From positions 41,337,045-41,401,044 of the forward strand of contig NC_081361.1 of NCBI RefSeq assembly GCF_030684315.1: a stretch of 64,000 nt of DNA, written 5' to 3'. Position numbers and translations under genes: made by a program. Within the stretch, counting starts at the first letter, position 1. Each line of letters begins with the position of its first letter. This DNA comes from Stegostoma tigrinum (lineage: Eukaryota). The notes beneath the pieces were generated by a model. That model was not told the origin of the DNA. It did no database searches and saw nothing but the letters and a program-made list of their open reading frames with translations. Positions 1,926 through 63,320 of this stretch are shown one piece after another.

Positions 1926-2870
1926 GGAAAAAAAAAAATCAGGCCACACAAATACCAGGCAATGACCATCTCCAACAAAAGCAAGTCTAGCCATCAATTC
2001 TTGACATTCAAAATATCATTATTATTGGTGAATTCCCCCATGATCAACAGCGGTAGTGATCATTGAGCAGAAAATTAAACTGGACCAAACATACAAATAC
2101 TCTAAGAGTTGGATCAAAATCCTGGAACTCCTTTCCTAACTACGATGGGTGTCTAAGGACTAGGGCAGTTCAAGATTGCAGATCACCACTTTTTGCACAA
2201 GGACACTTAATTGATCATAATTTTTACAACAGGAATGGAGGTTCATGGATGTCCAGTATATCCCCAACAAGATTTTTAATGATCCATACCAGCAGCTATA
2301 CAAAATGTTTTGTTTTACTGCTAAATTTGAACTAGGATTTCATTGATGGAATTCTTCATATAGCTCTGCATAGCTACTTTAAGTCCTGATTAATCATAAA
2401 AATCAGGCCAAAGTATTTGCCCAAAATCACAATAACATTTCTAGATGGACAATTTATTATTAGTATTCTCTCTTTGGCTCCAACCAATGGGACATCAATA
2501 TCAACATAGCGCTTATGTCCAAATATCTGAGAAGCAATGAGACAGGATGACGTAAGTAATAAGCAAGGACAGATTCTACATTCATAAAAAGCCCTAACTA
2601 ATCTCTCTCAAGATTAATATTCATTCAACGAGTAACATAAAAATCCTATTTCCTTCAGAATAAACAGCTTAACAAGGTCATATTCTTAGAAACAGAATTT
2701 TCCAAAGTATATGTCTCACTGATTGCTGGCAAATCATCACCTAAAGAAAAGCCAGCATTCTCCAATATTTAATTAGATGAATTTCTTTTTAAGGTAACTA
2801 GCGGTCTTTATTTCCCCAACCTATTCCACGGTGGTATTTAAATTACAAAAAAAGTGCACAATAATAAATG

Positions 2871-3034
2871 GCATCAGAGAAGCAGGAAAGTTTGACGTTT
2901 TGGGTCGTGACCCTTCTTCAACCCGAAACGTCAAACTTTCCTGCTCCTTTGATGCTGCTTGCCTGTTGTGTTCATCCAGCTTCACAGCTGTTATCTCAGG
3001 TTCTCCAGCATCAGCAGTTCCTACTATCTCTGTA
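2871..3034 (+). mobile_element. Mini Penelope pLTR/hammerhead fold-back insertion (family 1)
   Basis: An inverted hammerhead fragment (2871-2920) precedes a forward GAAACGTC...tail (2921-3030). TSD ACAATRATAAATGGCAT at 2858-2874 and 3035-3051. Confidence 0.85.
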
Positions 3035-3168
3035 ACAATGATAAATGGCATTGAATTGAAATTGATTTAAGCATTCAAAGTACTACATTAATATCACAAT
3101 TCAGCAACCCCCTACTTTAATTACTGTAAATCAAAAATATTGCTGAAAGCTACAAACTTTGATTTTGA

Positions 3169-3299
3169 GATAGCGATAATAGGAACTGCAGATGCTGGAG
3201 AATCCTAAATAACAAAGTGTGGAGCTGGATGAACACAGCAGGCCAAGCAGTTGCTTGGCCTGCTGTGTTCATCCAGCTCCACACTTGGTTATCTTTTAC
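3169..3299 (-). mobile_element. Mini Penelope pLTR fold-back (family 1)
   Basis: Tail plus 41-bp arms 3209-3249 / 3252-3292 (1 mismatch, 2-nt loop). TTGATTTTGA is duplicated at 3159-3168 and 3300-3309. Confidence 0.85.
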
Positions 3300-6099
3300 T
3301 TGATTTTGATTCATCTACACAAAATGTAGATAGATGACAAAAACAATTAACATGTAAAGCATTTTCCGCATGAAACATGAATTATCCCTATCGACCCAAA
3401 TAGTGGGCCTATGAAATCAAAATTACAACATTAGGCTATGAATTATTATCTGCAGTAAGACAAAGAACATATTATTGCACTTTATACAGTGCCAGTATAC
3501 TCTACACTGATCCTGTGATGTTCAGAAAAAAAAAGGAAGGAATGCTTCCAAGATATGTATAAATGGTTTGCTTACATTTTCAGAATAAAAACAGGCATCC
3601 CACAAAAGACAATAAAGTTCAAAGTTGATAAAAAAGTGGAGAGTTTCAATCATGGTAAGATCTGAAACTAATGGTAAAATATAAGTTTTTGTTCCAACTA
3701 ACACTAATGCGCACACCGTATAAAAATTGTGCCCACTTAGAACAGGATGTGTGCTTACATAAAAAAAACTTCTAGGGATAGTTTACAATTAAGTTTCGTT
3801 TCCTCATCAATTCCTATTCATCTTTCTCTAGTGTCATTTCATTTTGTCAGCTGTTAGATTTCTACCTCTACCCAAATGATTGGTTCTTTAATCAAGACTT
3901 AAATTTTCATATCTGGCATCACTTCCAGGCACATCTTTTGCACTTGTAGCTTCTAGTTCTACAAATTACAGTAGTCCTGAAATGACTCGCATACATTATC
4001 ATTTAATCATATAAACATTTAACATTCCTGAATCAGATTTCCCAATTACTTGAAACCTTAAGTCCTGGGATCAAATCGTGTTGCTCTTATCTGAATATTG
4101 TTATGACCCCAGACCAGGCTAAGCATTTTGTTATGATCCCACATGAGATCATATTACATTATGATCTGGTTAGGGACTAATAACCTCGTAAAAAGTGAGT
4201 TCCAGGAGACTCAAGAAAATAGTGCCACAAAATTCCATGGTTTTGATCATAGAAGAATGAGTTAGAACAGTAATACAATTTGCAGTTAATATGCAATGTA
4301 TTTCTAACACCCAGAATTAACATGTAATAAACACAGATAATATACTGTGATCAAATACCCGACAGTAGAGAGCAAATGTGATCAAGACAGATGCCAACGA
4401 TTTCTCAGGAACTCCTTCCAAACACACATGACACAATGGGTCATCAAATCTTGTTAAACTTCGTGAGTTTACAAGTCTTCAATTTTATCAATCCACCTTT
4501 GAAACTCCCTCCAAAGAACAGTTCTGCCTGTCTCAACAACAGTTCCAGTTCTACTTCATCACCTTTCTTTCCTGGGTTTATGCTTCCGTGGATTCTGAAA
4601 ACTGCACTCCAGCACTTATTCACAGGCACAACTCCAGTGGGTCCTGAGGAATTTTTTGGATTTACCTTGTCCACAAGATCCACAGCTATTCCTTCAAGAC
4701 TATTCCCTCTAAGCTGCTGATTTCCCAGATTCTCTTCTGGCCTCCATGTTAGTTGATATTGTACAGTTCTTGGGCTTCAGGTGTTGACCCTTTCTCTTTC
4801 AAATTTGTTGTCAATACTCCTGTAAATAAACAATTTCTTGATCTCTCCATCTTTGCCAACAACCATCCCATATCCAAATTCCTTCTCTTTTCTAATGTAA
4901 CATACTTTAAAATTCTCTAACACAAATTAAACATGAGGAATGAGAACACCCGCTACACAAAATTAAGTTTGAGGTCAGAGGGATTGCTTGCCAATAATTA
5001 TCAATTGCTGCAATGAAAATCCTTGTTGTGTTGACACTTCCAAATACATTACCATTCTTGAACTTATTTGTTCATGGGACATGAAAACTACTAGCTAGCT
5101 AGTCTGTATTGTTCATCTCAACTGCTAGGTGGTGGTAAGCTGCCTTTTCGAAACACTGCGAACCTAGGTGCAGAGACACACACAATGCTGTGAAAAAAGG
5201 AATTCGGGATTTTGAACCAGTGATAGTTAGGGAACAAAGATATAGTTCTAAATAAGAATGATGCTTGGTTGGAGGAGTATATAAAGGTGGTGGTGCTCTC
5301 ATTCATCTACTGCCCTTGTCCTCTTCGATGGTAGTGATCATAGGTACGGAACGAGCCTGGAGGAGTTACGACAGTGCATCTTATACATGGTATACACTAC
5401 TGCCACCATACATCAGTGGTGAAAGGAATGGATATTGGATGCCAATCAACCACGTTATTTTGTCCTGGATGGTGTCAAGCTTGAACGTTGTTGGACTTGC
5501 ATTCAGCCAGGACAGTGGAGAGTCTGCGTCACAAACCTGCCATGCCCTGTAGACGACAGAATTCCTAGTCTCTGACCTGCTCTTGTAGACACTGTATTTA
5601 GAAAGCTGGTCCAGTTTAGTTTTTGCTAAACAGTAACACCAGAATGTTCCTAATGAGAAATTCAGTAATGGTGATGGGCTTGCATATCAAAAGGTGATGG
5701 TTACATACGTGTTGGTGATGGTCTTTTCCTGCCATTTTTATGGTGCAAATATTACTTGCCACTAAAATATTCCAAGTCTAGATGCTGTACAAGTCTTGCT
5801 ACATTTAGCTATAAATTGTAGTTACAAACATAGCCATTTTAATTTCTCCAATCATAGTTCCACCCCAACCATAGTACCAAAATGGCTCTTATCAACGTCA
5901 CAAATGGCATCTTAGGTAATGTTGATGAAGGAAAACTTTCCCTCCTCACCCTTCTTGACTGTGGCATTTAACATAGCTGACCACACCAACTCCCTCCAGC
6001 TGCTCCACATTATCAACCAGAAGGGAGGGATTACTCTCACATGGTTCCAATTCTACACAGCTAATCATAACCAGAAAAATCACTTGCAATGGTTTCTTG

Positions 6100-61560: not shown

Positions 61561-61765
61561 TGGCTCAATGCTGCAGGTACAAAGCAATATGAAGAAAATT
61601 ATGGAGAGATGTTTAATGAAATATTTTAATTTAACCCTCCTTTTGCTTTTTTTCCTTTCTTGAAATGTCTAACTTATGCTGGTGCACGCTTACATTGTAG
61701 ATTGACCAGATAGCTTCCTGCATGTACCTAGACTGTAATTGTTATCCACTGACCCCTGCTGGAGA

Positions 61766-61846
61766 GTGTGTGTGTGTGTGTGTGTGTGTGTGTGTGTGTG
61801 GGTGTGGGTGTGTGTGTGGGAGAGAGAGAGAGAGAGAGAGAGAGAG
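61766..61846. repeat. Compound microsatellite (GT)n(GA)n
   Basis: Directly visible. Confidence 0.97.
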
Positions 61847-63220
61847 TGTATGACAACAAATAACCCATTTCCAAGGAAACTCAAAGTGGATGCCCTTCCC
61901 AACCAACCGTATCCCCAAAAGAAACAACATGCCTGTTATTTAGTATATTTAGATATTGTTAATTTTCATAGGAACAGGTCAATGCCTTTAGCCCCTCAAG
62001 CCTGTTGTGCCAGATTTGTAGCCTAACTCCATATTCCTGTCTTTGCCTTTCCATAAATTTGGGATTTTGAAAAACTGAGCTAGCATCAAATGCCATTTGC
62101 GATGTAACAGAGTGACAAACTTTTATAGTCCTTTGTGAGCAGAAATGTTTCCAAATTTCACACTTGAAAAGCTCTTATTTTTTCTGGTCCGAGATCTATA
62201 ACCATCAGAAATAGTTTATTCTTTATTGATTCCCCTTTGAATCTTGAAAATGCTGATAACTCAAAATATCCTTCCTAAGATATGGTGCCCAATATTAAAC
62301 ACAATAGTCCAGGCATTTAACTAGGGCATTGTATGTTATAGCATTTCTTCTATCTTTTTCATCTATAGTCCTGCAGATAAATACCATGTCTCTTTTTGTT
62401 TAAAATGTCATGGACAGGTATAATGATTAATGCACATAGATAACTAAGTGTCCATGGACTATTGACACCTCTAGCTTTTCACCTTTTAGAAAGTACTCTT
62501 GACATATCCTTTTTTGGATCCAATTGGATGATCTCACACTTGATATCAATTTGTCAGTTTTTTTTCCTCATTCATTTAGTCTATTACTATCTCTTTTTAC
62601 TTTTAATTCAGGAACCAGCATTTTCACCAGTGTCTCATCCATGTGGCCATTCTTCACATCTAAATTAAAGTCAAATAAAGTTATTTAACCTAATATTCAC
62701 ACATATATACTTGCTAAAAGGAGTCATGAAAAAGTAATCAAAACAATTTTGCTTTACTTCAGAGTGCTGACCAATTCAGCATGAAGCACGAAATTATCAC
62801 ACCTATGTAGCAGTTTCACATCAAGTAGGTATTGTACTCATTTACGGAAGTCATGGAGAGATGTATTTTGATGACAATCTGGGAAAATGCCCTATAGTCG
62901 ATGTACTTCTCTGGGTAACCACTTTTTCCTAAAATTGGTGATCCTTGTAGTCTTCGTAAAATCGCAGACTCTTGTTTCAAGCCTTTTTCAGTTTTCCAGT
63001 TTCAGCAGTATTCTTTTTTTTACTTTTTAATACTGAGAAGTGAATAATAAGAATGGAAGTCATATTTATTTGAAGCAGAGCATTGTTGGCTCATTCAGAT
63101 AGATTTTACAGTCAGATATTGGCCAAATAAACTTTTCTTGTCTCTCTTCATTCTTTCATAAACAAAAAGCTCTCTGATACTCATAAGCCTTGGCAGTAAG
63201 ACCAAACAAGTCTTTTCACA

Positions 63221-63320
63221 CAAACAGAAACCATAAATTGCTGGAGAAACTCTGCAGCAATGGCAGCATCTACGGAAACAAAAGAGAGTTAATGTTTGGA
63301 ATCTTGTGACCTGTCTTAAG
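63221..63320 (-). mobile_element. Degenerate Penelope pLTR fragment (family 2)
   Basis: AAATTGCTGGAGAAACTC...GGCAGCATCT...AGAGTTAATGTTT, matching 54895-54960. Confidence 0.6.

Follow-up and report, generated by a model that had tools for sequence, protein, structure and literature searches.

A clustered 5' end in short, hammerhead-bearing Penelope-like copies of the Stegostoma tigrinum genome, and its probable link to a transcription start

Hammerhead ribozymes in the pseudo-long terminal repeats (pLTRs) of Penelope-like elements (PLEs), as well as the tails, the inverted truncated copies, the solo and opposite-strand minimal hammerheads and the PLE-derived retrozymes, are already in print (PMC4209133, PMC8557442, PMC7229834, 10.64898/2026.07.22.740005). 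For two of these sources (PMC8557442, PMC4209133), solo minimal hammerheads and opposite-strand pairs 100-700 bp apart were earlier taken as probable truncated PLEs, and the rebuilding of the pLTR and the reason for its hammerhead are presented as open questions (PMC2377424, PMC8557442). The analysis reported here concerns a 64,000-nucleotide (nt) stretch of Stegostoma tigrinum DNA (assembly GCF_030684315.1, contig NC_081361.1, positions 41,337,045 to 41,401,044 of the forward strand; hereafter the window), which lies in introns of a gene with CUB-domain exons in a host genome of 3.2 Gb, and eleven short copies and one remnant within it. BLAST against natural long copies placed all twelve, which align to such copies as pieces of a PLE pLTR with a minimal hammerhead, as the preliminary description of this DNA had proposed. 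Like the truncated inverted insertions described for Neptune and Poseidon elements (PMC8557442, PMC4209133), they combine a pLTR carrying a minimal type I hammerhead with target site duplications (TSDs), a tail of 30-40 nt confined to one arm and a second copy that is inverted and truncated at its 5' end; they are best filed as a mechanistic footprint of known PLE insertions, not as a new class of element.

In what follows, a mini is a short pLTR-piece copy with arms of 95-130 nt, an arm being one strand-half of a copy, in a head-to-head pair or solo, and position 0 is the C of the CUGANGA core, with cleavage predicted after +27 to +29 across groups (+27 in the young reference). The core, stem II and a palindromic helix III are present in all groups, and arms end near +92 when tail-less or near +126 when they carry the tail. 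The window copies, most of which are tiny head-to-head palindromes, fall into three sequence groups: A (copies at 2871, 3169, 6100, 9699, 11949 and 26205), B (15741, 36942, 54855 and 63221, the last being the remnant) and C (18873 and 33187). An unbiased sample was drawn from 14 regions of 100 kb at preset positions, of which 1.35 Mb was left after exclusion, before counting, of the second 50 kb of the C14 sample, where a segment is triplicated, and of the tandem locus L121. The excluded C14 region (C14:30,000,001-30,100,000, loci L196-L205) contains three copies of a segment of about 24 kb, all carrying identical PLE insertions, either a segmental triplication or an assembly artefact. Young arms are those of group A with at least 90% identity to the young reference (n=116).

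The preliminary description held that the inner boundaries of these copies cluster at the ribozyme. In the window, ten of the eleven copies have an end at most 25 nt from the core, between -10 and +17, and the copy at 3169 stops further 3' (+49/+50). The clustering is real and general in this genome, outside the window too. In the 1.35-Mb sample, 47 of the 97 young arms that reach +9 end at -8 to +9, a density of 3.35 ends per 100 nt, which is 14.5 times the downstream density (0.23; p 4e-25) and 38 times the upstream density (0.09; p 8e-37). Both p values take arms as independent, though paired arms are not. The peak is seen in 12 of the 14 sampled regions. The smooth truncation curve named beforehand as the outcome that would speak against clustering was not seen; the ends form a sharp peak at the hammerhead. 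The commonest young end is -4 (10 arms), and only three arms end at +25 to +31, around the cleavage site. The view that the copies are not simple cleavage products stands. The peak persists among arms with at least 95% identity, of which 24 of 69 end at -10 to +7 (duplicates still included), and thus is not an alignment artefact. It is also found in TSD-bounded copies without a paired arm, seven of 16 of which end at -5 to -2.

For the remaining groups, end modes come from hand tallies among 100 matches listed of 10350 (B), 150 (C1) and 502 (C2) genome-wide, and the mode of the old group A copies was read by eye. In group B, 86 of the 100 matches listed end within 6 nt of the core, with a mode of -3, and the 82 group B arms of the sample include no end between -45 and -9. 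Of the C2 matches listed, roughly three in four are truncated, with a mode of -7. C1 copies are mostly long, with about 20 of the matches listed truncated within 13 nt, and the truncated ones mainly end at -6 to -8. The idea that both arms always end on the identical base was rejected, mixed -2/-4 junctions being present in three of 100 matches listed. Zero-loop or near-perfect palindromic junctions are also found away from the peak (+34/+34, +45/+45, -24/-24, -148/-146 and -353/-360), which suggests that both cDNAs (complementary DNAs) often end at one RNA break.

The two arms of an insertion also share their fate. The 72 tight head-to-head pairs include 27 peak-peak, 17 long-long and a single mixed pair, whereas independent stalls would give 22 mixed pairs among those 45 (p 1e-12); the corresponding counts among 60 TSD-validated pairs, at any gap, are 17, 20 and 2. 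Thus, the end is a property of the template, and a stall occurring separately for each enzyme is disfavoured. Mixed pairs occur among loci selected for one long arm (L005, L028 and L145), and the arms of long-long pairs differ widely in length (rho 0.40, not significant).

The position of the peak follows a TATA-like box that is found only in long copies and is absent from minis. Giving in turn the commonest end, the first T of the box and the length of helix I (taken from one natural copy per subfamily), the values are -4, -34 and 2 bp for young A; -3 or -4, -35 and 2 bp for old A; -3, -32 and 4 bp for B; -7, -37 and 4 bp for C2; and -6 to -8, -39 and 5 bp for C1. The distance from box to commonest end is therefore 29-33 nt in all five subfamilies, and the end does not track the length of helix I. 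A spacing of 29-33 nt is the usual one between a TATA box and its start site, and sequences resembling the initiator (Inr) consensus lie at or adjoining the end, TCT-like in young A and YYANWYY in old A, B and C2. Among long copies, the box is present at -34 in 27 of 28 young A and at -35 in eight of 17 old A; an exact TATAAA is found in seven of 13 B copies and two of eight C2 copies (the other C2 boxes having decayed), and one of three C1 copies has the box. A promoter within the pLTR has been located for the Penelope element of D. virilis (PMC2377424), and a putative TATA and Inr are given for rotifer pLTRs (PMC3846280). The boundary might also have been a splice acceptor, as in D. virilis (PMC4209133), but for group A this was dismissed, since no AG stands at -6/-5.

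Minis are probably run-off cDNAs, primed internally in the 5' pLTR of an uncleaved RNA and ending at its transcription start, with long copies made from circular or tandem templates. Under this scheme, the TATA box and initiator of an upstream pLTR would give an RNA polymerase II transcript starting at about -4 (A, B) or -7 (C2) and running through hammerhead, tail and open reading frame (ORF). The protein, a reverse transcriptase (RT) joined to a GIY-YIG endonuclease (EN), would bind just 3' of the tail and, using the two cut strands of the target, prime internally at +126 and +92. If the RNA is linear and uncleaved, each cDNA would run off after 95-130 nt, and the pair would be fused head to head or reduced by trimming to a solo copy, a product that would lack the promoter and be a dead end. 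For the Poseidon element of Anolis, two internal priming sites bracket the tail in vitro, extension takes place on each of the target strands, the reaction needs the initial 172 nt of the ORF, and uncleaved RNA is the main substrate (PMC11167929). In S. tigrinum, tail ends run at least 4 nt into ORF-side sequence in five of 15 minis and three of 19 long copies, where the chance expectation is 0.005 in either case; thus both types of template had the ORF start behind the tail, and priming would have taken place at a pLTR-ORF junction.

Long copies cross the hammerhead unbroken, which would call for a template with no end at that point, either a circle made by the hammerhead or a tandem read-through RNA. 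In such copies, one pLTR has to have the end of the ORF on its upstream side and the start of the ORF on its downstream side, from which a circular or tandem template would follow. Such a template, proposed for PLEs on other grounds (PMC4209133), would also rebuild the promoter-bearing pLTR. The preliminary description had looked to circular or multimeric templates as a source of the minis; here, such templates are assigned to the long copies, and minis would derive from linear uncleaved RNA. A more specific version, put forward tentatively, has two classes of template, whereby linear uncleaved transcripts yield promoterless strong-stop minis, hammerhead-circularised unit-length RNAs yield all long and partial-tandem copies, and both cDNAs of an insertion are made from one RNA by a dimeric RT. 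If true, it would provide genomic evidence for the purpose of the PLE hammerhead and for the rebuilding of the pLTR promoter, and the transcription starts of PLEs could be read from mini ends in any genome.

Several points weigh against the run-off reading. The transcription start at the commonest end is a prediction from sequence. The comparison of offsets involves five related subfamilies that differ by a few nucleotides, partly through hand tallies; the group A box, TATTTA, is a non-canonical TATA; in group B, the mode (-3) and the Inr A (-4) differ by one base; and the C1 peak is weak. About half of the -8 to +9 peak sits at +1 to +9 or -5 to -7, requiring trimming or scatter of start sites. 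A cap-derived G was rejected as evidence after failing three controls. Counts looked favourable at first: genome-wide, the base before -4 is G in 4350 cases, A in 687 and the templated C in 56192, and among 100 matches listed of 7983, 31 G, 5 A and 14 T are not explained by a partner arm within 10 nt (hand tally). In the controls, a G stands before the junction in 19 of 37 peak arms but also in 16 of 38 randomly truncated long arms, old A has no excess of G, and for ten of 12 such cases in C2 the G belongs to the partner arm or to a tandem copy. None of the six copies that reach the 5' pLTR starts at -4 (they start at -12, -61, -269, +46 and, in two cases, beyond -395), so that the assumption of a second template is forced. 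Finally, the share of minis varies by subfamily from about 30% to 70%, a range that run-off does not explain. By pLTR haplotype within group A, mini and long arms number 16 and 37 (CTA), 27 and 17 (TCG), 39 and 13-14 (old CCTG) and 11 and 19 (one more). The share climbs from about 30% of arms in the youngest group A haplotype to about 60-70% in older ones, with loss of long copies or promoter differences as candidate causes.

Alternatively, the RNA 5' end could be set after transcription, with longer PLE RNAs being trimmed 5' to 3' or cut until the hammerhead, folded or bound by protein, halts a nuclease a few bases ahead of it, and RT running off the uniform end so formed. Trimming would account for an end at the level of the template, for the concordance of arms, for the lack of a cap-derived G and for the position of the end, immediately 5' of the motif, in all groups, and the PLE hammerhead is protein-assisted (PMC11167929). 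It is nonetheless unlikely, as it is the TATA-like box, not the length of helix I, that the offset follows across its range of -3 to -8, and a box about 30 nt before the end, in unrelated upstream sequences, is left unexplained. A stall or template switch of RT at the hammerhead fold of long RNAs, as the preliminary description had suggested, with the second arm a fold-back copy of the first cDNA, would place the peak at the ribozyme and couple the arms; some junctions could form 4-nt loops, and self-priming has been proposed for PLE palindromes (PMC3846280). The fold is expected to stop RT on its 3' side (+20 to +32), yet only five of 102 young arms end within +10 to +29, and the ends sit 5' of the complete motif and, in four of the five subfamilies, past helix I. 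Zero-loop perfect palindromes, present at five loci in the sample and in 17 of 100 matches listed, are impossible by fold-back, and the unequal lengths of long-long arms, the shared fate of arms and the unpaired copies ending at -5 to -2 also argue against a stall, which is thus rather improbable.

A third possibility, also raised in the preliminary description, is that minis form a self-propagating, non-autonomous, ribozyme-delimited class resembling short interspersed elements (SINEs) or retrozymes and mobilised in trans. The very many dispersed copies with TSDs would fit such a class, as would the predominance of minis among the group B matches listed, the differing mini share of subfamilies, and, with a 90% identity filter, unequal allele counts for minis and long copies at three columns; retrozymes derived from PLEs, and solo monomers, have also been described (10.64898/2026.07.22.740005). 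The apparent mini-specific alleles were, however, traced to the mix of subfamilies and dropped. Minis and long copies occur in every group A haplotype tested in the 1.35 Mb, where no mini subfamily with diagnostic substitutions, and hence no SINE-like lineage, was found; minis carry the diagnostic alleles of long copies in each subfamily, identity to the autonomous pLTR reaches 100% among the youngest, and a minor long-copy variant recurs in a mini pair. Minis also lack the ORF-side segment needed for priming in vitro, as well as the upstream TATA-like box (though they may have an internal downstream promoter), and they are not tandem, their junctions varying from copy to copy. A separate class is accordingly very improbable. 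Least credible of all is that minis are central deletions of longer palindromes arising after insertion, or an alignment artefact from a divergent upstream pyrimidine tract. Long palindromes are unstable, and the mini share is higher in older subfamilies; the peak, however, is seen in arms with no less than 95% identity to the reference, TSD-bounded copies that lack a partner arm stop at that point too, and deletion would not choose one position. Central deletion, which had been named at the outset as the origin that would undo the idea of ribozyme-linked ends, is thereby refuted for the young family.

The run-off reading supposes a parent element, the layout of which was traced upward from long copies as a pLTR with hammerhead, followed by the tail and an ORF that starts at +166, just past the tail. 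The parent has the single ORF coding for RT plus, at the C terminus, a GIY-YIG domain that defines EN+ PLEs: at locus L132, a 773-residue frame matches RVT_1 (E 3e-5) and GIY-YIG (E 3e-3), both below the curated cut-offs, and at locus L164 the frame starts at +166 and stays open for 925 codons, up to the end of the locus. The linker that joins RT to EN in the group A ORF, C-x4-C-x2-C, is of the Neptune/Nematis type, an assignment that holds for the group A ORF only; Nematis also has a CX2-5CxxC-type linker (PMC8557442). The partial-tandem pLTR with minimal hammerhead that is typical of PLEs is seen in six of 24 loci, which show pLTR and tail before the ORF, and the insertions have the PLE form of an inverted truncated copy with a TSD, the tail being on exactly one arm in 69 of the 72 tight pairs. 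Loci L163 and L164 (G000:C4, about 68,971,000-68,977,000) are two young elements, apparently full-length and arranged head to head; their 5' pLTRs begin at -12 and -269, and a proline-rich tandem repeat precedes the RT in their ORF region.

The window copies, together with a young long insertion that served as the reference, are collected in Table 1. The preliminary description reported TSDs at five of the eleven copies, and these were confirmed (2871, 3169, 9699, 26205 and 54855, the last one weak); no TSD was found at the other six window copies or at the remnant. An Rfam scan of the window gave no match to a hammerhead model and only chance microRNA hairpins.

Table 1. Penelope-like copies and associated features in the window (window positions; signed numbers are relative to the hammerhead core)
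Feature	Position	Strand	Details
Group A (old) mini palindrome	2870..3031	.	tail-less arm (-, +1..+50), tail arm (+, +17..+126)
TSD of the 2871 copy	2858-2874 / 3035-3051		17 bp, 1 mismatch
Group A palindrome without hammerhead	3172..3295	.	arms end +49 and +50; 10-bp TSD 3159-3168 / 3300-3309
Group A (old) solo mini	6100..6221	-	+3..+123; no TSD found
Group A (old) solo mini	9699..9829	+	extra G, then -4..+126; core at 9704; 11-bp TSD 9688-9698 / 9827-9837
Group A tail-less solo mini	11949..12037	+	+4..+92
Group B mini palindrome	15744..15929	.	arms begin +9 and -7
Group C mini	18872..19014	+	+4 onward versus a C1 copy; short inverted remnant on 5' side
Group A (old) mini palindrome	26210..26416	.	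arms +11..+126 and +4..+93
TSD of the 26205 copy	26189-26204 / 26410-26425		16 bp, 1 mismatch
Group C2 mini	33191..33322	+	+3/+6 onward; 12-nt inverted remnant ahead, reaching about -7
Group B fragment after the C2 mini	33331-33373		
Group B mini	36942..37105	+	-4..+129; core at 36973; short inverted remnant upstream
Group B palindrome	54865..55057	.	arms begin -10 (-, core at 54982) and +45 (+); weak 11-bp TSD, 1 mismatch
Group B remnant	63223..63297	-	+23..+96
Young group A long head-to-head PLE insertion (reference)	58255..60674	.	left arm (-) with 34-nt tail, right arm without; 15-bp TSD 58243-58257 / 60669-60683
C-terminal part of PLE ORF	58609..59598	-	C-x4-C-x2-C linker and GIY-YIG (Pfam PF01541, E 7e-4, below curated cut-off)
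TATA-like hexamer	60546..60551	+	at -34; retained in long copies, absent from minis
Predicted transcription start (-4, 60576) and minimal hammerhead	60576..60607	+	core from 60580; predicted cleavage after 60607

The window also contains sequences unrelated to the minis. The + strand exons at 37538-37978, 40383-40805 and 45782-46315 encode one CUB domain each (Pfam E 2e-31, 5e-31 and 1e-29), and a frame at 53412-53918 ends in a hydrophobic stretch that may be the membrane anchor of the same gene. The stretches 42578-45178, 47577-48504, 49757-50478 and 7637-8508 hold fragments of a non-LTR retrotransposon, putatively CR1-like and with a match to RVT_1 at 42730-43209, together with several SINE-like repeats. 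In contigs of another organism, from four presumed RNA runs, single contigs join ORF-start sequence back to the 5' boundary of the hammerhead, and many others have unrelated sequence before -1, hinting, at the level of contigs only, at the same boundary and at tandem units in a relative.

Non-LTR retrozymes (PMC7229834; 10.64898/2026.07.22.740005) resemble the minis in being non-coding, pLTR-derived and hammerhead-bearing, and dispersed monomers are mentioned for them. Retrozymes, however, are tandem units of 150-450 bp that give circular RNA, whereas the minis have arms of 95-130 nt, arranged head to head or solo rather than head to tail, and lack the upstream TATA-like box and, in group A, a lineage of their own. 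A true retrozyme-like unit was found at L121:4982-6182 (G000:C22, about 10,005,000-10,006,200), where 2.9 tandem copies of 301 bp are accompanied by an inverted arm. This unit is an internal-deletion derivative of the young PLE, in which the pLTR, tail and ORF start to +242 are joined to the 3' untranslated region near -66, so that the TATA-like box, hammerhead, tail and ORF start are retained; it is an object separate from the minis. About four older relatives with similar junctions occur in the sample (C1, two in C4, and C12).

The reaction described for Anolis Poseidon (PMC11167929) is alike in its internal starts bracketing the tail, the extension of both strands, the requirement for sequence after the tail and the uncleaved template, and 5' truncation of that template shortens the product. 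That study was performed in vitro with synthetic templates and a PLE of another clade, and the available text reports neither a genomic run-off class nor a link to a start site. Similarly, truncation is treated as unpatterned in the available text of PMC8557442 and PMC4209133, whereas here about half of young group A arms and most of the group B matches listed end in one TATA-linked zone, with concordant arms. In the literature searched, which left subscription papers and supplements outside its scope, no nucleotide-level peak of 5' ends tied to a pLTR promoter and no arm concordance were found. A promoter-linked end in about half of young arms, common to both arms, provides a direct and cheap test of how the PLE pLTR is rebuilt and what its hammerhead does. 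Minis are likely dead by-products, and the many solo minimal hammerheads and 'retrozyme monomers' that have been tallied for fishes, amphibians and reptiles may for the most part be run-off cDNAs of this dead kind, not a separate class.

The minus-strand strong-stop DNA of retroviruses and LTR elements is a short cDNA that is primed near the 5' end of the RNA and runs off at the start, without the upstream promoter. The minis are like it in their putative run-off at the start and in the missing promoter, and unlike it in being target-primed, without a tRNA primer, and inserted directly, with the concordance of their arms arguing against a strand transfer made separately by each cDNA.

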